From positions 211,048,001 through 211,112,000 of the forward strand of contig OZ024742.1 in assembly GCA_964016885.1 (NCBI GenBank): 64,000 bases of DNA. The letters are read 5' to 3'. The number at the start of each line of letters is the position of its first letter. Position 1 is the first letter of the stretch. Position numbers and translations under genes: made by a program. The notes beneath the pieces were generated by a model. The model saw only the letters and a program-made list of their open reading frames with translations. It ran no database searches and was not told the origin of the DNA. This stretch comes from Eledone cirrhosa (Eukaryota). Shown here one piece after another: positions 24,101 through 56,188 of this stretch.

Positions 24101-24943
24101 ATAAAAATTGTTTCCTTTCAAAATGAAATGTTTGTTTTGTTTGAAAGTATCAAGTCAGATCTTAATTGCAAGCTTAGCCACAGGAGGTTACAAAAGTCTT
24201 AGTAACCGTTAAATAATGAAAAATTAAATGTTACCTTTTTAAAAGAGAGAGAAGGAGGGGACAACATTTTAAAGCTGAGTTAGACGTAAATAGAAACTGC
24301 ATATTTGTTTTGAACATAAGCTGAAGAACATCAACAGGTTCCTATATATCTATAAATATATATAAATATAATAAACCCGCCATTCTCGAAATATTTTTTT
24401 TTTTTTTTTTTTTTTGTCATTTAAGTTTAACCGACTTGTGAGTATCCTGTCCATAAGTTTAGATTATTCATGTTCATCTTCAGAACACTTTCCATTTTCT
24501 TACAATAGAAAATAAAATATATGTTGAGGTTAATTCAGAAAAAAAAAATTCGATATTTATATAAGATAAAATGAACACATTATCAGTTGAAAATCGTAAC
24601 TTTAAATGCAGCAGTGTCTGTGACTAAATTAGTTCAGCGAGCTAAAAAGATCTCAATATGGCTGCTGAAACACGTGACATCAGTGCAGGAGTCCTAATGT
24701 AGCAATAGATACCAAAAAAATTGGCCGAACAGAACTAGAATATAATTGCACTCACTAATTTCCAGTGAAAGTGGTTTATCCATTCAATAGAATATTTGTA
24801 ATCAATTATCAACCAGGCAGCCATGTTGGAAATTCATGAGCAGAACGAAAAATTCGCTTACTTGAATGAATGAATTCATGAAATTAATGTATATGCTACG
24901 AATTGGTGGAAGTTTACATGATTAAATTTTTCTTTTTCTTTTT

Positions 24944-25001
<58 letters not shown>

Positions 25002-25016
25002 ACCAACGACATTAGG

Positions 25017-25916
25017 TCATCGAAAATCTGGATTCATAGTCACTGTTATTCCATCCAAAATGTCCCACTTATCAGATGGTAGCTTACTCTTACAGTTGCT
25101 AGTTAGCGAAGAGTTAGCTACAAGGTTATTTTTGTTGATAGAACTACTAGTACTTTTACTTCGAACATTATTGGTATTTGTTGAATCGGAATTAGAAGTA
25201 GAAACAACGGACGAATTTTCCGTTTCCATATCCATCGCAGGAGATATACTGTTTTCAGTTCCGCAAGACAATGTTTCAGTTTGCTGTCGCATACTTTTCC
25301 GTGCGGTTTGTTTCCTGTTTATCGATGATAAAATACCTGGTACCGATTTAGATACATTTGCCTTTTCTGCTCCCGATGTTTCACTTTTCGAATCTTTTCT
25401 TTCACCGGTTTCACCATTTTCTGTGTTATCATCTTCAATATGTTTCTCTACATTATGTGGTTTAGATTCTTCGTCAACTGAAGGTGAAGCTGGCGATGCA
25501 GGGTTACTGTTTTCCGACGAAACACCGTCGCTGTCAGTAAGGTCAACAATTTCAGGAGAGCCATCGCTGTATTCATTATTTTGGACAAAGCTATATTCAG
25601 ATGAAGCAGCAGTCGAAGTAAAGCTGAAAACGGGTCTATAGTTACATGGAGTCAATTCTCCAGCGGAATTAAGCATGCCTGGAAGATAACGAACGTAGTA
25701 GCGACCCTGAATTTGTTTCGATTCCGTAATAAACATAATCATTCGATCCAAATCCTCAAAATTAAATTCATTGATAGCATAAGCTTTTGAAACATAATTA
25801 CCATGATTACCGTTCATTGGAGATAAATCAGACTGTGAACCACGAAATATTCTCTTGCGACTTCTGTCTTGTCGTCGACGTCTTTCGTAACTCATTTTCT
25901 TTTTCTTCTTTGGCAT
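25017..25916 (-). CDS. Putative host nuclear protein, 299 aa, largely disordered; NLS, SIM and histone-H3-tail mimic; no family recognised
   Basis: 900-bp uninterrupted ORF in a repeat-free island; GCC-ATG Kozak context. PKKKKK/RRRR at the N-terminus, EIVDLTDSD, KQTARKS. Long AT-rich 3' flank with AATAAA sites on the minus strand. Confidence 0.72.
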   Translation of the reverse strand: MPKKKKKMSYERRRRQDRSRKRIFRGSQSDLSPMNGNHGNYVSKAYAINEFNFEDLDRMIMFITESKQIQGRYYVRYLPGMLNSAGELTPCNYRPVFSFTSTAASSEYSFVQNNEYSDGSPEIVDLTDSDGVSSENSNPASPASPSVDEESKPHNVEKHIEDDNTENGETGERKDSKSETSGAEKANVSKSVPGILSSINRKQTARKSMRQQTETLSCGTENSISPAMDMETENSSVVSTSNSDSTNTNNVRSKSTSSSINKNNLVANSSLTSNCKSKLPSDKWDILDGITVTMNPDFR

Positions 25917-26063
25917 GGCAGGAAACCCCGCACTTATATATGTTGTTGATGTAGCTATTTATAGCAAGAAGTTGGTGCAACTAAAACTAATAAAATGTCT
26001 ATAAATATATGAGCTAGGCAAAAATAAAAGCAGGTGCTGAAAAGCTCTTGCCTGTAACTATTG

Positions 26064-26072
26064 CGCCATTTT
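26064..26072 (-). promoter_or_regulatory. YY1-type motif in the putative promoter/5' UTR of the 299-aa gene
   Basis: AAAATGGCG on the minus strand ~150 bp upstream of the ATG, in a locally CpG-retaining stretch; TGACGT at 26181. Confidence 0.35.
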
Positions 26073-26435
26073 GTTTAATTGTTTAGTAATGGAAGTGAAA
26101 GGTAAAGCAAATTATTCCGCGAAGGGGCATAACTCTGTTGAAATTGACGGCCGAGGACCGACCATTTTAAATACGGGTTCTGACGTGTAACAAAAGGAAG
26201 CCAAGCCGTTATGTACTACTTAAAGTGCAAATAAAGTTCGTCTAAATTTGTAAGATGGAGGGGGTGGAGTAGGTTCAAAACAAACAATTTTAGCTAGGAA
26301 CACTTCCTTTGCTATCTTTCTACTAAGGTTGTAATGATCATATAAAAATTGTTTATATATATATATATATATATATATTATTATTATTATTATATATAAT
26401 ATATATATATTATTATTATTATATATAATATATAT

Positions 26436-39580: not shown

Positions 39581-40927
39581 TTATTGTTCATTTAGCTTGG
39601 GTTTGAATTTATCAATAAAATTCTTTTCTTTGATTTTTCTCTTGATTTCATTTGGGCTGTGTAATTTGTAGAATGGGAATATTATAAATATTCCCTGACC
39701 ACATGTTGCCAGGTGGCCGCTTAGGGGTATCTGACGGACATTTGGGTCTCTGATTTGTTGACGGTGTACCCGTGCACGTTCCGATAGTGCATTTCCAGTT
39801 TGACCGACATATAGTTCTTCACAATTCGGGCATTTAATGCAGTAAATTAGATTTCTGCTTTTGCAGTTCATATTTGCATTTGTGAATATTTTTCCAGTTT
39901 TTGTTTTCATATATTGACCGGCGTGTATGGATTGACATGTGCCGCATCGATTATCATTGCATTTAGATACTGTGAATGATTGGTCTTTGTTGTTAAGGTC
40001 AAACTTTGCTTTTGTTAGCAATTGCTTCAAATTTTTTGGCTGTCTTTTACTAAGAGTCAAAGATCGATCTGTGATTAAGCCTTTTAATTCATTACTTTGA
40101 GCAATGATCGGTAGGTTTGCTTTGGCAGTGTTGAAGATATTCTGGTGACATGGGTTGTGTGTCATTATAAATGGTATGACCAGTTCTTGGTTTCTTCTTC
40201 TTTGGGTTGTTCTAAGTTGTTGTATAGGTATTTTTATAGCCCGCTGTATGCCATTTTCTATAAGTAGAGATGGGTATTTTTGTTTGAGCAAAAATTCTCT
40301 TAGTTCTGTTAGGCGTTTGTACCTGGTATTCGTATCTTCTACAATGGTACAAATTCTTCTGGCTAGGCAGTATGGGATGTTGCGTTTTGTATGAGGTGGA
40401 TGGCACGACTTAAAATTCAGATATTGATGGGTGTCTGTGTGTTTATAATATATATCCGTGGTAATGGTGGTGTCGTTTTTGATTATCATTATATCTAGGA
40501 ATGGTAATTTGGTCCTGCTCATCTCTTTTGTGAATTGGAGAGATGGGTGTAGGTTATTCAGGAGGATATTGAACTCATCCAGAGTATCTAGAGATTCTGT
40601 CCAGATGATGAAACAGTCGTCAAGGTATCTCTTCCAAGATTTTTCAATGTACTTTCTAAAGTCAGTACTATATTTTTCCTCTATTTCTTGGTAGAGTTGT
40701 TGTTCTAAGTATCCCATTACAGAGTTCGCGTAAACGGGAGCAAACTTCGTTCCCATCGCTGTGCCTCTAATTTGGATGTAATTCTTTCCATTGAAGAAGA
40801 AAGTGTTGTTTTCCAGAATAAGTTTAACTGCGTCTAATATAAATGGCGCTGTGAATCTAATGGGAATCACTTCTCTATGTTTTTCCACCCAGTATTTAAC
40901 CGCCTTTATTCCTAAATCATGTGTAAT
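39581..40927 (-). pseudogene. PLE RT C-terminal half + GIY-YIG endonuclease (split by RTE insertion)
   Basis: GTAMGTKFAP, RYLDDCF, CxxxxCxxC linker, LIYCIKCPNCEELYVGQT..ERARVH. Confidence 0.9.
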
Positions 40928-42216
40928 CATCATCATCATCATCACCGTTTTACGTCCGTTCTTCCACGCTAGCATGGGTTAGACGGGTTGTCCTGTTGTG
41001 GGCAGTGTCTGGTCGGCTGACCATGCCTTGCTCATACAGGAACTGATCTGGCTTGATTTCTACAGCTGGATGCCCTTCCTAACACCAACCTCATTTACAG
41101 TGAGTGCTGGGTGCTTTTTCGTGGCGCCTACACGTCCACTTTACAGTGTGGGCTGGGTGCTTTTTCGTGGCACCTACACGTCCACTTTACAGTGTGGGCT
41201 GGGTGCTTTTTTGCCGTGGCACCTCCACGACCACCTTGCGGTGGGGGGGGGGGGGGCATATTGTTTATATGCTTCAGCATGTACCCATGGGAGGTCGGGT
41301 ACCCTGTATTACTGCGTGACGCCAGAAGTCACGGTCGTGTGTCATTGACTTTGAGAGGTGTAGTTGGGTAAGGTCGGCTTTTATCACCTCATCCCAAGTC
41401 ATCTTGGGTCTCCCCACTCCGCGGTTTCCATCAACTTCTAGTGCTCTGCACCTTTTTATGCAGCTGTCATCCTTCATACGCATCACATGTCCATACCAGC
41501 GTAACCGCCTCTCCTGCACGCAGCATTTGATTCCTCTTATGCTCAGTCTCTCTCTCAATTCATTTATGCTTTGTCGTTCACGTATATTACTGTTACACAT
41601 CCATCGGAGCATGCAGGCTTCGTTTCTCTCTAATCTACGTAAGTCTTCCACCTTCAGCGCCCAGGTCTCACTACCATGCAACATCGCTGTTCGGATACAC
41701 GCATCATACAGTCTGCCTTTCATTCTGAGGGAGAAGCCTTTTGCAGCTAGCAGTGGTAGTAGTTCCCTAAACTTCTTCCATCCCGTTCTTACCCTAGTTA
41801 TTGTACTTTCTGAGCACCCACCTCCGTTGCTAATTCGGTCACCTAGGTAGCAGAAGCTGTCTACTGTTTCTACAGGGCCCTCCCAGAGATTGGTGGTACT
41901 TGTTTCCTGTGGCTGTTTGCTTGCTGTTTCAGCACAGCTGCTGCATGTGAATCCTACATTCTTAATTAAGCTTCCTGAGATCCCGCTACATCTCTTGTGT
42001 ACCCATTGTTTGCATTTGGGGCAAAGAATGGAGTTCCTACCTACACCTTTCCTACATACTGAGCAAGGCCATTTCCCTGAGGGGATCTGGGTTCTGTTTT
42101 CTCGTCTACTTATAAGGACCTTAGTCTTTGTCATGTTGACTTTGAGGCCCTTTCTCTCTAGTCCCTGCTTCCAGGTTTGGAATTTATTCTCTAGTTCTAC
42201 CATAGATTCAGCTATG
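40928..42216 (-). mobile_element. RTE family 1 copy, 5'-truncated, inserted in PLE copy B with TGTAAT target duplication
   Basis: Near-identical to 52768-54012; TGTAAT at 40922-40927 and 42215-42220; one extra ~45-bp 3' UTR unit. Confidence 0.95.
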
Positions 42217-44608
42217 TAATGTTGGTGTAAAGGCTTACCACATCAAAACTGAGTAGAAGTGAATTCGTTTCCGTGGTTTTGGGAAGATGGGACAGGAAGT
42301 CGATATCATCCCGGATGAAACTGGGTATGTGAATACATAGTGGTTTCAAAATAATGTCAACAAAATTGCTTAGACGGTGAGTGGGGCATGTTGGACCAGC
42401 TATAATAGGTCTAAGTTTTAAGTCTTTTGGGTGTAATAATTTAATGTACTCACTGTTTTGTTCTCTTACTGCCAGTTGTATTTCTTTTGACTTGTGAACT
42501 TTCGGTAGGCCATACAGGTTGCTGGGTTTCGGCTCAAAATTGGTGATGTAGTCTCTTTCCTTATCAGTAAATGAGTTGTGGTATTTTGAAGCCAGGTTGT
42601 TGATCTTCTTCATGATGTTGTGGTCTATATTTGACGGTATTTCATGATAGAATGTTGTGTCTTTCAGTTGTTCCTCAACCAAATCCTTGTAGTATTCAGT
42701 ATCCATTATAACAACTGCACCCCCTTTATCTGCTTGTTTAATTATTATTGTTTTATCATTTTGTATACGTTTAAGTGCAGACATTTCTGATTTGTTAATG
42801 TTTGGCCTAACATTAGTATTATGTCTAAGAGGAAATTTAGACAGGATGTCAATGTATTGGTCGAGATAGATATTTCTTCCTTTTGGCGGAGTGAAATTTG
42901 ATTTATTCTTTACTAGTGATTCATCACTCTCATTATTTTTATCAGCGAAGAATTCTACAAGACGTAATTTTCGACAGAATTCTTGGGTATCCTCCTTCAG
43001 TTCTTGGTGGTTGACTGTTGGAGTCGGTGTGAATTTCAGTCCTTTTGACAGAATTTGCATTTCATCATTGTCAAGATCTCTTTTAGATAAATTAATTATT
43101 TTAGGATCTACGTGTACAGCTGTTTTGGGTATGTTTCCTCCTGGAGTTTTTCTTTTTCCGGTTTTTGTTGTCCTGACGTTAAAAAATGAATTTTTCTCTG
43201 TTCAGGATTTATATTCCTGTTGGTGTTCGCTTGATGAACTTTTGGTCGTGATATTATATTTGGTTTCGTTATGTATTTTGTCCTATTTTTGGTATTCTGT
43301 ATATTATTTTTCTTCCTGTTAGCATTATTTTTAACAATCTGGGAAAATGACCTAGGTTTGCTTTCAGGTTTAGATCGTTTTTTCGTCCAGTTTCTTGTGG
43401 GCAATCTCTGTTGAGATCTTGAGAGTGATCTGGTTATTCTACGTTTTGTTTCCACATTCCTTGTTGGTAGTCTCTGTTGAGATCTTGAGAATGATCTCCT
43501 GGTTTTACTACTTCTCATGGTCTGGTCAAAGGAATACCTATCGTGTTTGTGCTTTTTGTTCATGTTGTGTGCGATAGGGTGTTTTTGTAGAAAAAGCGAA
43601 GAGTTATTACCGTAGTTCTTCTTTGATTCAAGGTAAGGTGAGTGTTTGTGTTGGCACGTGTTCTGGCGTATGTTGTGTTGATGAGATTGTCCACTTTTAA
43701 TGCTTTTTCTCAGGGTTCCAGAGTCTTTACCGTAATTTGCAGCATATTCATCGAGAAATAATTGTTTCTGCTGCCATACCTTTCTTGATTTGTTTCCTTC
43801 TTTTGAGATATCTCCGATCCATAGTTCTCGTAGTTTTTCAGCTATAATACCAGTCGTTAGCTTTGAAATTTCAACTTCAATTTGGTCATCAATAACTTCA
43901 TATTTGGCTTTGTAGCGGGATTGTTTACATTCAGAAATGGAGATGAACTGCAAAAGCAGAAATCTAATTTACTGCATTAAATGCCCGAATTGTGAAGAAC
44001 TATATGTCGGTCAAACTGGAAATGCACTATCGGAACGTGCACGGGTACACCGTCAACAAATCAGAGACCCAAATGTCCGTCAGATACCCCTAAGCGGCCA
44101 CCTGGCAACATGTGGTCAGGGAATATTTATAATATTCCCATTCTACAAATTACACAGCCCAAATGAAATCAAGAGAAAAATCAAAGAAAAGAATTTTATT
44201 GATAAATTCAAACCCAAGCTAAATGAACAATAATAACGCCTAGGGGTATTACTTCTACTACCACTATGACCACGACCACTAACAACAACAACAACAACAA
44301 TAATAATAATAATAAAAGTGATGTTGATGGTGATGATTAATAGAAAATGCTATTTTCATCATTTCAAAAAAGCAAAACAATTGATACGTTGGATATGACT
44401 ATTGGTCGTTAGCATGCTCAACCAGCCGTGACGCTTAAACCAATCAGCTGTAGTAATTCAGTGAAACTACACACTGATTGGTCGAAATACAGTTTACAGG
44501 GCTTTGCATTCTGGAGCCACTTTTCTCTGTATAAAATGTATAAAAGGTAGGAAATTTACCCATCTCATTACAGTTGAAAATTGCAAACTCGACTGTCACC
44601 ACATATCA

Positions 44609-53068: not shown

Positions 53069-56000
53069 TCAGCATGTACCCATGGGAGGTCGGGTACCCT
53101 GTATTACTGCGTGACGCCAGAAGTCACGGTCGTGTGTCATTGACTTTGAGAGGTGTAGTTGGGTAAGGTCGGCTTTTATCACCTCATCCCAAGTCATCTT
53201 GGATCTCCCCACTCCGCGGTTTCCATCAACTTCTAGTGCTCTGCACCTTTTTATGCAGCTGTCATCCTTCATACGCATCACATGTCCATACCAGCGTAAC
53301 CGCCTCTCCTGCACGCAGCATTTGATTCCTCTTATGCTCAGTCTCTCTCTCAATTCATTTATGCTTTGTCGTTCACGTATATTACTGTTACACATCCATC
53401 GGAGCATGCAGGCTTCGTTTCTCTCTAATCTACGTAAGTCTTCCACCTTCAGCGCCCAGGTCTCACTACCATGCAACATCGCTGTTCGGATACACGCATC
53501 ATACAGTCTGCCTTTCATTCTGAGGGAGAAGCCTTTTGCAGCTAGCAGTGGTAGTAGTTCCCTAAACTTCTTCCATCCCGTTCTTACCCTAGTTATTGTA
53601 CTTTCTGAGCACCCACCTCCGTTGCTAATTCGGTCACCTAGGTAGCAGAAGCTGTCTACTGTTTCTACAGGGCCCTCCCAGAGATTGGTGGTACTTGTTT
53701 CCTGTGGCTGTTTGCTTGCTGTTTCAGCACAGCTGCTGCATGTGAATCCTACATTCTTAATTAAGCTTCCTGAGATCCCGCTACATCTCTTGTGTACCCA
53801 TTGTTTGCATTTGGGGCAAAGAATGGAGTTCCTACCTACACCTTTCCTACATACTGAGCAAGGCCATTTCCCTGAGGGGATCTGGGTTCTGTTTTCTCGT
53901 CTACTTATAAGGACCTTAGTCTTTGTCATGTTGACTTTGAGGCCCTTTCTCTCTAGTCCCTGCTTCCAGGTTTGGAATTTATTCTCTAGTTCTACCATAG
54001 ATTCAGCTATGAGTGCGAGGTCATCAGCATACAGGAGTTCCCATGGGCATCCGGTCTTAAACTCCTCCGTTATTGCCTGCAGGACTATGATGAACAGGAG
54101 AGGGCTAAGAACAGAGCCCTGGTGGACCCCAACCTGTACGCTAAATTCCTCGCTATACTCATTGCCAATCCTAACTTTGCTGACTGCTCCCCTATACATG
54201 GCTTGTACCGCTTTCACAAGCCATTCATCTACTCCTAGTTTTCTAAGAGCCCACCAGATTACAGCACGTGGAACTCTGTCAAAGGCTTTCTCAAGGTCGA
54301 CAAATGCCAAGTAGAGTGGCTTACTTTTAGCTAGGTACTTTTCCTGTAATTGCCTCACAAGGAAGAGCGCATCAGTGGTGCCTTTCCCTGGTACAAACCC
54401 AAATTGCATCTCGTCTATATTCACCCGGTCCCTAATCAGCTGTGCTATAACTCTTTCTGTTACTTTCATGACCTGGTCCATCAACTTTATACCTCTATAG
54501 TTTCCTCTATCTAGTGCATCGCCTTTACCTTTGTAGCAGTTGACAATGATGCTACTGCACCAATCTTTTGGTATGGCCCCCTCTAGTATTACCTGGTTAA
54601 CGATACGTGTGGTTATAGTGTGACCTACAGACCCAGATGCCTTCAGCATCTCGGCAGCTATACCCGATGGGCCGGTTGCCTTCCCTATCTTCATATCTCT
54701 GATTGCCTTACTTACTACGCTGCCGCTGACTTGTACTGCTGGTCCCTCTATAGGGTCTACGTGGGGTAGGGTCTCTTCTTCCCATGCATTCTCCTCATTT
54801 AGTAATCTATCATAATGACTCTTCCATGCATCTTTCTTCTCAGCACTTGTGAGGGCAAGCTCACCTTTATCATTCCGGATACACTTCTCTCCAATGACAT
54901 CACAACTATCTCTGACACACTGCCTCGCAATCTTGAATACCTCCTGTTTCTGGTCCTCACGTTGTAAAACATGCTTGAATTTTCTATCCTCTGCTTCCCT
55001 CCTAGCTAAGTATACTTGTCGCCTAGCTTCCCTCTTGGTCTCTATGTAATGTACCCTGCTCCCCCCGTTCTTCCATTCTTTCCATGCCTGTCTCTTGGCC
55101 TTGACTGCTTCATCTACCTTATTGTTCCACCACCAAGTCACTCTCCTCCTGCTTGAGGTCTTACTCCAGCCACAAACCTCATCCGTCGCCTCTAGTAAGT
55201 TATTTTTTAGGAACTCCCAGTTCTCTTCTACGTTAAATGTCTCTATCTGTTCTTCTTTACTGTCGTAGGCGTTGAGTAAAATATCTTTAAATCTGTTACT
55301 GGTTGAGGGGACTTTCAGCTTCCAGATCTTTCTTCTCCAGGTTGGCCTCTGTTTCAGGGCTCGTCTAGTTCTGACCGTGAGGTCGCTGACAACTAAGCTA
55401 TGTTGGGATGTACATTCCTCACTAGGGAAGGCTTTTGTGTTTACGACCGTCCATCTGTCACGTCCTCTGATGAGGATAAAATCTAACTGACTAGAGTGCT
55501 CCCCTGATCTATAGGTGATCAGGTGGTTGTCGGGTTTTTTAAAGTTTGTGTTACATATCGACATGTCATTGGCGTCGCAGAATTCTAGAAGTCTGAATCC
55601 TTCCTCATTCCTTGTGCCAACTCCATGGCCTCCATGTACTCTATTGAAGCCGTCGCAGTGTTTACCTACGTGTCCGTTAAAATCTCCTGCAATGATTAGG
55701 AAGTCCTTGTCGTCTGTTAGAGCAGTAGTGTGTATTAGGGACTCGTAAAACCTATCCTTAAGTTCGTCTGGCAGCCCCGATTGGGGTGCGTAAGCTGATA
55801 TTATTGTGGTAATTGTCTTATTCAGGACTAGTCTGAGTTTAATGATTCTTGCATTTACCCTGTACACTGAGATTACTTTATCTACCCACTTGTCAGCTAA
55901 TAGTATACCTACACCACCCATCCCATCGTCATTTCCCACCCAGAAAAATTTGTAGCACTGGCTTTTTCCTACAAGGACTCTAGCAGACCCTCCTCTCCAT

Positions 56001-56188
56001 CTAGTCTCTTGCACACAGCATACATCAACTTCCTTTCGCTCTAGCATTTCTACGATTTCTCCTGCTCTTCCTTTCATTGAGCCTACATTGATGGTACCAA
56101 CTCGGAGTTTTGGGCATTTGTCGACACTCGTAGGGGGGGGTCTCTGGGTTGGCGCTTCACGTGGGTGCTTGGTAGCTCGCAGATTCAT
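53069..56188 (-). CDS. RTE ORF: APE endonuclease + reverse transcriptase with inserted PHD-type finger, 1039 aa, intact
   Basis: GTINV, VQETRW, SAYAPQ, AGDFNGH, SQLDFIL, SQH (APE); NYRGIKL, QFGF, FVDLEKAFD, GVHQGSVLSPLLF, YADD, FCYLG, RLRWYGHV, GR.K.TW (RT). Confidence 0.97.
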   Translation of the reverse strand: MNLRATKHPREAPTQRPPPTSVDKCPKLRVGTINVGSMKGRAGEIVEMLERKEVDVCCVQETRWRGGSARVLVGKSQCYKFFWVGNDDGMGGVGILLADKWVDKVISVYRVNARIIKLRLVLNKTITTIISAYAPQSGLPDELKDRFYESLIHTTALTDDKDFLIIAGDFNGHVGKHCDGFNRVHGGHGVGTRNEEGFRLLEFCDANDMSICNTNFKKPDNHLITYRSGEHSSQLDFILIRGRDRWTVVNTKAFPSEECTSQHSLVVSDLTVRTRRALKQRPTWRRKIWKLKVPSTSNRFKDILLNAYDSKEEQIETFNVEENWEFLKNNLLEATDEVCGWSKTSSRRRVTWWWNNKVDEAVKAKRQAWKEWKNGGSRVHYIETKREARRQVYLARREAEDRKFKHVLQREDQKQEVFKIARQCVRDSCDVIGEKCIRNDKGELALTSAEKKDAWKSHYDRLLNEENAWEEETLPHVDPIEGPAVQVSGSVVSKAIRDMKIGKATGPSGIAAEMLKASGSVGHTITTRIVNQVILEGAIPKDWCSSIIVNCYKGKGDALDRGNYRGIKLMDQVMKVTERVIAQLIRDRVNIDEMQFGFVPGKGTTDALFLVRQLQEKYLAKSKPLYLAFVDLEKAFDRVPRAVIWWALRKLGVDEWLVKAVQAMYRGAVSKVRIGNEYSEEFSVQVGVHQGSVLSPLLFIIVLQAITEEFKTGCPWELLYADDLALIAESMVELENKFQTWKQGLERKGLKVNMTKTKVLISRRENRTQIPSGKWPCSVCRKGVGRNSILCPKCKQWVHKRCSGISGSLIKNVGFTCSSCAETASKQPQETSTTNLWEGPVETVDSFCYLGDRISNGGGCSESTITRVRTGWKKFRELLPLLAAKGFSLRMKGRLYDACIRTAMLHGSETWALKVEDLRRLERNEACMLRWMCNSNIRERQSINELRERLSIRGIKCCVQERRLRWYGHVMRMKDDSCIKRCRALEVDGNRGVGRSKMTWDEVIKADLTQLHLSKSMTHDRDFWRHAVIQGTRPPMGTC

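Follow-up and report, generated by a model that had tools for sequence, protein, structure and literature searches.

Introduction

A reading frame of 299 amino acids in the genome of the octopus Eledone cirrhosa contains a seven-residue word of the histone H3 tail, and the locus raises the question of whether this word belongs to a real gene, whether it is kept by selection, and what its host protein may do. The window analyzed is a stretch of 64,000 nucleotides (G000:C3:211048001-211112000) in a source assembly of 3.0 Gb, and its DNA is abundant in TA microsatellites and retroelement frames; positions given without a contig name are those of the window. An earlier note on this DNA had described the frame as an orphan nuclear protein with an exact H3 mimic, a SUMO-interacting motif (SIM) and a nuclear localization signal (NLS), possibly a chromatin adaptor or decoy. 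In octopus, transposons are reported to be free of 5-methylcytosine while H3K9me3 is present (PMC9476566), and H3K9 targeting in such repeat-rich genomes is consequently of interest. Histone mimics are well known, and the surprise at this locus is a stand-alone orphan host beside an ATF7IP gene that is itself mimic-less. A conserved, apparently cephalopod-restricted protein uniting a SIM-type motif with an H3K9 mimic offers a specific candidate for a silencing factor. A published description of a histone-mimic orphan in octopus or other cephalopods was not found in a literature search that left most subscription journals outside its scope.

The Gene and Its Likely Transcript

The frame at 25017-25916 is a real, single-copy, uninterrupted octopod gene. 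The gene and its upstream parts are as follows.

25017..25916, minus strand: ORF P0001, 299 aa, without interruption, single-copy (program translation, genome search, contigs without joints)
25917..26085, minus strand: likely 5′ leader, about 169 nt (five RNA-like contig ends vs two longer runs)
26086..26300, minus strand: likely promoter, CpG-rich (observed/expected CpG 1.09 vs 0.54 for the window; DNA-size run of a relative aligning to 26233)

P0001 gave one match among 34 scored candidates in its own genome, and the distant relative P0004, searched against the same genome, matched solely the P0001 locus among 48 candidates. Public runs were aligned over 25005-26340, and seven of the eight yielded one contig each, with joints in none, whereas X3 yielded no contig. 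The contigs of X1, X7, X12, X16 and X22 come from five studies and stop at 26081, 26085, 26048, 26065 and 26084, respectively; none of the runs is recorded as RNA, X1, X7, X12 and X16 being RNA only by the guess of the tool and X22 having no assigned kind; the X12 contig shows an adapter-like loose end after 26048. The DNA-size runs X19, possibly derived from the same DNA as the window, and X23 continue to 26340 and 26233. These ends are a weak hint of an intronless transcript with a start near 26085. A scan for ATG codons found one three-codon upstream ORF in the leader, starting at 26069; this start sits in a YY1-like word (26064-26072), and the word at 26181 in the likely promoter is CRE-like. 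The observed/expected CpG ratio is 1.22 in the ORF, 1.09 over 26050-26300 and 0.54 over the whole window. Flanking direct or inverted repeats of the transposon or retrocopy type were not found around the ORF. Some 600 bases beyond the stop codon, a run of about 24 A residues lies on the strand of the gene (24393-24416), which could be a simple repeat or what is left of a retroposed tail; a target-site duplication looked for at the ORF together with this run was not found.

Judged from sequence comparison, the ORF is under purifying selection. The conserved core (residues 43-99) is identical to that of the close relative P0002 at 57/57 positions, and pN/pS in the disordered half (codons 123-299) is 0.37 (22.5/413 vs 17.5/118), a value computed from the 40 listed of 83 differences in run X1 over 25005-25550, assumed complete and with indels ignored.

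Relatives and Conserved Islands

Searches seeded by words, whether queried with the protein or the alignment, and a HMMER profile search without seeds across 1.84 billion representatives returned the same three clusters only, in agreement with the earlier description of the gene as lineage-specific. P0002 is 86% identical to P0001, and its cluster includes Octopus bimaculoides; P0003 and P0004, both Logan records, are 48% and 42% identical in the alignment, and P0003 is 34% identical by BLASTP. The closest named relative is P0005, an uncharacterized UniRef model of O. bimaculoides. Its longer N-terminus (residues 1-62) was set aside as a probable mis-annotation, no splice joint being seen; the first 48 residues match a dispersed repeat (34 tblastn matches in the DNA compared). 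Since no relative of P0001 was found among the bivalve, gastropod, chiton, brachiopod and arthropod proteins of the searched collection, the family looks cephalopod-restricted, or diverged past detection.

The alignment comprises four proteins (P0001-P0004) from only three independent lineages, and it contains five conserved islands (residues 8-22, 43-99, 121-127, 202-210 and 284-298). These, and the N-terminal extension, are listed below.

25896..25913, minus strand: PKKKKK, basic N-terminal extension, residues 2-7 (close relatives only)
25851..25895, minus strand: Arg-rich patch, residues 8-22 (9/15 identical in both distant relatives)
25620..25790, minus strand: conserved core, residues 43-99 (57/57 identical in P0002, 46/57 in both distant relatives)
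25527..25556, minus strand: SIM-type motif, P[ED][IV]VDLT + acidic, residues 121-130 (5/7 identical in both distant relatives)
25287..25313, minus strand: KQTARKSMR, mimic of H3 K4-S10 followed by Met-Arg, residues 202-210 (9/9 identical in three relatives)
25023..25067, minus strand: C-terminal motif WxxLDGITxTxNPDF, residues 284-298 (15/15 in P0002, 11/15 and 12/15 in the distant relatives)

The positions previously given for KQTARKS (25293-25313), EIVDLTDSD (residues 122-130, 25527-25553) and PKKKKK are correct. By contrast, PKKKKK is not supported as the NLS of the family: it occurs in close octopus-type relatives only, P0003 and P0004 start at the equivalent of Met8 and thus lack it, and it is residues 8-22 that form the conserved basic patch, the likelier family-wide NLS as predicted from the alignment. 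Likewise, the view that the rest of the protein is mostly low-complexity overlooks the core (46/57) and the C-terminal motif (11/15 and 12/15). This 57-residue domain and this motif are newly defined, with database matches found for neither; they are the most conserved parts of the protein, and their role may dominate.

Neither the core nor the whole protein could be assigned to a family or fold, and the low-confidence models neither name nor exclude one. The whole of P0001 has no Pfam match, including any DNA-, RNA- or histone-binding or catalytic domain, and the core, P0003, P0004 and the C-terminal 20 residues gave nothing below E 6.5; the best E values in PDB sequence searches were 3.9 and 0.37. 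Neither the core nor the full-length protein had a usable match in the ESM Atlas, a null that carries no weight for novelty or absence. AlphaFold2 models have mean pLDDT values of 42.8 and 59.2, and the core is modeled, at low confidence, as a helix with beta strands. Among the fold searches from these low-confidence models, one had no match and the others reached at best Z 4.4 and E 0.39, the former for the core (rmsd 4.3 over 61). A resemblance between the core and the chromo-barrel or Tudor-knot family (PF11717) found no support: there was no Pfam match, and hhalign against the Tudor-knot of the same genome gave a probability of 0.3%.

The H3 Mimic

KQTARKS (residues 202-208) is identical to K4-S10 of the H3 encoded by this genome, as the earlier note had proposed from the letters alone, and by position K207 corresponds to H3K9 and S208 to S10. 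A histone fold or extended tail homology is absent (no Pfam match; the longest word shared by P0001 and H3 is seven residues). A back-translated KQTARKS pattern matched the genome 35 times, against nine matches for a reversed control pattern. Thirty of the 35 loci were read: 12 are H3 genes, one is this ORF, five carry the identical 7-mer in short non-coding frames (15-43 aa), and the remaining 12 are near-misses admitted by the looseness of the back-translated pattern. The chance expectation of any H3-tail 7-mer is 2e-5 per protein of the composition of P0001; by arithmetic this comes to roughly 0.5 in a proteome, if about 25,000 proteins are assumed. Because the same 7-mer arises in non-coding frames and about 0.5 are expected per proteome, the match alone is not decisive.

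Conservation lifts KQTARKSMR above chance, and by this comparison the motif is under selection. All nine residues are identical in P0002, P0003 and P0004, whereas the flanks in the two distant relatives retain 17/73 and 13/73 residues before the mimic and 25/73 and 14/73 after it (18-34%). The three disordered regions share words of at most nine residues, against a maximum of five in 10,000 shuffles, and apart from the mimic the only shared 4-mers in these regions are VDLT and TSSS. KQTARKS and the DLT-type SIM are accordingly conserved islands (9/9 and 5/7) amid diverged sequence, as anticipated, although the limits of the former had been drawn too narrowly, the conserved word extending to KQTARKSMR. 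The mimic ends in Met-Arg, where H3 has Thr-Gly, and this Met-Arg is likewise invariant in the relatives; the invariant stretch spans all of K4-S10, including the ARK[S/T] core and the -5 lysine. The mimic lies in predicted disorder (pLDDT <50 over residues 128-201 and 203-240), a prediction built on the four-row alignment, and so does the SIM-type motif. In its word, its predicted disorder and its conservation above the flanks, P0001 has the sequence attributes of an H3K9-mimic protein. Conservation by itself does not tell which modification occurs, since ARKS also suits kinases and acetylation.

Comparison With Known Systems and a Proposed Mechanism

Short ARK[S/T] words in unstructured regions, conserved above their flanks, are also found in G9a, GLP, SETDB1, LIG1 and WIZ (10.1101/2025.01.21.634156; PMC10611923; PMC10464304). 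Those hosts are large enzymes or zinc-finger proteins with an animal-wide distribution, whereas the present host is a 299-aa orphan of octopus and two distant relatives and its match to H3 covers all of K4-S10. The SIM-type motif resembles that of PIAS2, two hydrophobic residues and Asp-Leu-Thr being followed by acidic or serine residues, and fits by sequence the VIDLT-type PIAS2 peptide that binds SUMO2 (10.1101/2021.01.20.427433); unlike PIAS proteins, the octopus protein has a single SIM-type motif and no SP-RING or RING, and its SUMO binding is predicted. With EZHIP and viral histone mimics it shares lineage restriction, predominant disorder and a conserved H3-imitating word, but it imitates K9 rather than K27 and keeps the lysine, and would thus be a substrate rather than a K-to-M inhibitor.

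The closest likeness is to ATF7IP/MCAF1/Windei, where ARK[ST]MR in disorder and a [VI][IV]DLT-acidic SIM are likewise combined in one nuclear-type protein. ATF7IP is a SETDB1 cofactor; G9a/GLP methylate its K16 mimic, and MPP8 reads it (PMC6172828; PMC7618375; 10.1101/533091). P0001 differs in having a single exon, a quarter of the length, its SIM (121-127) ahead of the mimic (202-210), and an unrelated 57-aa core with a C-terminal motif. Since it also lacks the FN3 domain and the SETDB1-binding coiled coil and its motif order is reversed, P0001 is, by its sequence, not a member of the ATF7IP family. The FN3 family (PF16794) has no Pfam match in P0001 and does match elsewhere in the genome; for the coiled coil, P0001 remained unaligned to a 14-row ATF7IP profile and its model has no long helix. 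A search with PF16788 gave no match even on the ATF7IP of this genome and is hence uninformative. An ITEFSL-like FAM motif (PMC7706265) conserved in the P0001-P0004 alignment was not seen by eye.

The reading that we favor, with somewhat better than even confidence, is a lineage-restricted nuclear adaptor whose K207 is likely methylated and read like H3K9; from its sequence, the orphan likely engages the gene-silencing machinery (H3K9/SUMO). The localization, modification, binding and role that we infer would be as follows. The Arg-rich patch would carry the protein into the nucleus, the SIM would dock it onto SUMO-coated chromatin, and K207 would be methylated by an H3K9 methyltransferase, for which the G9a/GLP type is the likeliest choice. 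The methylated word may then recruit or hold chromodomain or Tudor readers (HP1, MPP8-like, UHRF1), S208 being a possible phospho-switch, and the core and the C-terminal motif may contact further partners.

Several published observations are consistent with these steps. The mouse ATF7IP site has the same ARK[ST]MR ending; G9a/GLP trimethylate it and MPP8 reads it (PMC6172828). The MPP8 chromodomain binds the ATF7IP peptide more tightly than H3K9me3, with a modeled preference for ARK[S/T] (PMC7618375). At +2, SUV39H1 tolerates small residues only (PMC8303541), a range that leaves out Met, and therefore a writer of the G9a/GLP type is the better guess. ARKS-type mimicry is frequent among G9a/GLP partners (PMC10611923), and in work on SETDB1, methylated mimics within unstructured regions are reported to bind HP1 (10.1101/2025.01.21.634156). 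The -5 lysine of H3 and LIG1 sits in an acidic pocket in UHRF1's tandem Tudor domain (PMC10464304) and is retained in the octopus mimic. SIM-dependent recruitment of SetDB1/Wde has been demonstrated in Drosophila (10.1101/533091), and SETDB1, like H3K9me3, is reported to be present in octopus (PMC9476566). In the genome, one large exon on G000:C25 (L093:1318-2352, minus strand) encodes a chromodomain, a pre-SET and a partial SET domain of the SUV39H type. A G9a/GLP or MPP8 gene was not located in the genome by searches in which Pre-SET gave one match and multi-exon genes match poorly.

An ATF7IP Gene in the Neighborhood

The ATF7IP FN3 family was searched because of the ARK[ST]MR likeness, its location not being known beforehand. 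Both genome matches lie at G000:C3:211298949-211302757, on the strand of the ORF and 225 kb away; further ATF7IP exons extend to 211350464, the last of them matching a named octopus ATF7IP at 100% identity. The other family searched then, Tudor-knot, lies on another contig. By arithmetic, a single named gene would fall this close by chance with a probability of ~1.5e-4, a figure that stays <1% when some 40 silencing genes are allowed to count. Between the ORF and ATF7IP are a WD40 gene, with WD40-repeat exons at L068:4229-4450 and L069:6555-6779 (minus strand), and a broken Maelstrom copy. The available text of a cephalopod epigenetics paper contains no mention of ATF7IP (PMC9476566).

The ATF7IP survey covers the 70 records of at least 600 aa among the 120 listed of 1340 matches. 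Among the matches listed, a DLT/DLS-type SIM is present in 67/70 long records and ARK[ST] in 8/70, always within the first 50 residues; named ARK[ST]-bearing records among them are from abalone, three caenogastropods and a horseshoe crab. One record, P0074, carries QTARKS. None of the 10 cephalopod records among the matches listed, which are partly isoforms from few species, has ARK[ST], and 52/60 long non-cephalopod records among the same matches are also without it. The mimic site, about 40 residues ahead of a shared anchor, reads ARMS in octopus, TRMS in the E. cirrhosa exon, NRKS in the cuttlefish type and ARKS in gastropods.

L041:390-420 = G000:C3:211350390-211350420, minus strand: [AT]RMS site of octopus ATF7IP (rows P0007-P0016)

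This [AT]RMS site could reflect a short deletion, or else a natural Lys-to-Met form of the H3K9 mimic; Met also occupies the position of the mimic lysine in the rows of chiton and scallop.

Weighing the Explanations

The neighborhood is a real but unexplained lead rather than proof of descent. P0001 might be a diverged local derivative, or a dedicated partner, of ATF7IP that supplies the lost H3K9 mimic in trans; this is compatible with the adaptor reading, and we consider it unlikely. It draws on the same-strand linkage over 225 kb, on the lack of ARK[ST] in all 10 cephalopod ATF7IP records among the matches listed, on the replacement of gastropod ARKS by ARMS, TRMS or NRKS in cephalopod rows, and on QTARKS in P0074. 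However, the SIM is the sole alignable stretch: profile-profile comparison of the P0001 family with 14 ATF7IP proteins (hhalign) aligned the SIM alone with a probability of 2.3%, and hmmsearch over the 120 ATF7IP records listed gave a best E of 0.0027, again for the SIM only. In 53 neighboring stretches the gene has no tblastn match, and blastn matches are of ≤37 bases. The motif order is reversed (mimic then SIM in ATF7IP), the WD40 gene and the Maelstrom copy intervene, and the absence of ARK[ST] from 52/60 non-cephalopod rows among the matches listed, together with the isoforms among the cephalopod rows, weakens the argument from loss. A scenario in which cephalopods split the job, ATF7IP having lost the mimic and the new neighbor giving mimic and SIM to the SETDB1 complex, likewise has a low probability in our judgment; if true, it would be a lineage-specific silencing subunit in animals whose transposons are not DNA-methylated.

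The adaptor reading must also be set against explanations in which the word does not promote silencing. As a decoy or brake, the mimic would titrate H3K9 writers or readers and limit silencing, and a small, mostly disordered protein with an exact copy of K4-S10 and no catalytic or chromatin-binding domain found would suit that role; yet each chain has a single copy of the motif with its methylatable lysine kept, and the pairing of SIM and mimic is that of the pro-silencing cofactor ATF7IP, which makes a decoy quite improbable. The word might instead be kept for another read-out without methylation, such as phosphorylation of S208, acetylation of K207 or importin binding. The context of S208, R-K-S-M, offers a basic residue, a target serine and a hydrophobic residue, presumably an Aurora-B-type or other basophilic kinase consensus, and the invariant Met-Arg differs from the H3 residues. 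A kinase site, however, would need no invariant Lys-Gln-Thr-Ala at -6 to -3, and the seven-residue match to H3 would be left without a cause, so that we regard this read-out as distinctly doubtful. Coincidence in a non-functional or neutral stretch can appeal to the non-coding 7-mers (5/30 loci read) and to the ~0.5 H3-tail 7-mers expected per proteome, but is already largely refuted by comparison of the relatives: nine residues are invariant across proteins ~34% identical by BLASTP, and 0/10,000 shuffles exceeded five, which leaves chance very improbable indeed. The nuclear adaptor, with K207 as a probable methylation site, remains the reading that we prefer.

Other Features of the Region and Genome

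The broken Maelstrom copy is intronless, with an HMG box and a Maelstrom domain in two frames and a stop (L072:4402-5383, minus strand, G000:C3:211286402-211287383), and lies 11 kb beyond the 3′ end of ATF7IP; elsewhere, C4:184540352 has an uninterrupted 559-aa Maelstrom frame and C2:99075213 a third match. A Tudor-knot acetyltransferase, which we take to be KAT5/Tip60, occupies one uninterrupted frame of 509 aa (L032:217-1743, minus strand, G000:C12:18070726-18072252) and is likely a retrogene. The Maelstrom copy and this acetyltransferase suggest that the genome contains several intronless chromatin genes. About 168 kb past the ORF, a unique open frame of 381 aa (L076:6170-7312, minus strand, G000:C3:210904170-210905312) has no convincing Pfam match. 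A frame at L061:6031-6228 (plus strand), also without a Pfam match, resembles gamma-SNAP. A Helitron remnant, in which Helitron N-terminal helicase-like domains and PIF1 domains are spread over several frames, extends from L056:7165 to L057:2316 (plus strand, G000:C3:211129165-211134316). Within the window, a long retroelement frame at 39581-43060 (minus strand), presumably Penelope-like, encodes a reverse transcriptase that ends in a GIY-YIG-like part, and a 1039-aa frame at 53069-56188 (minus strand) encodes an endonuclease and a reverse transcriptase, with near-identical partial copies nearby.
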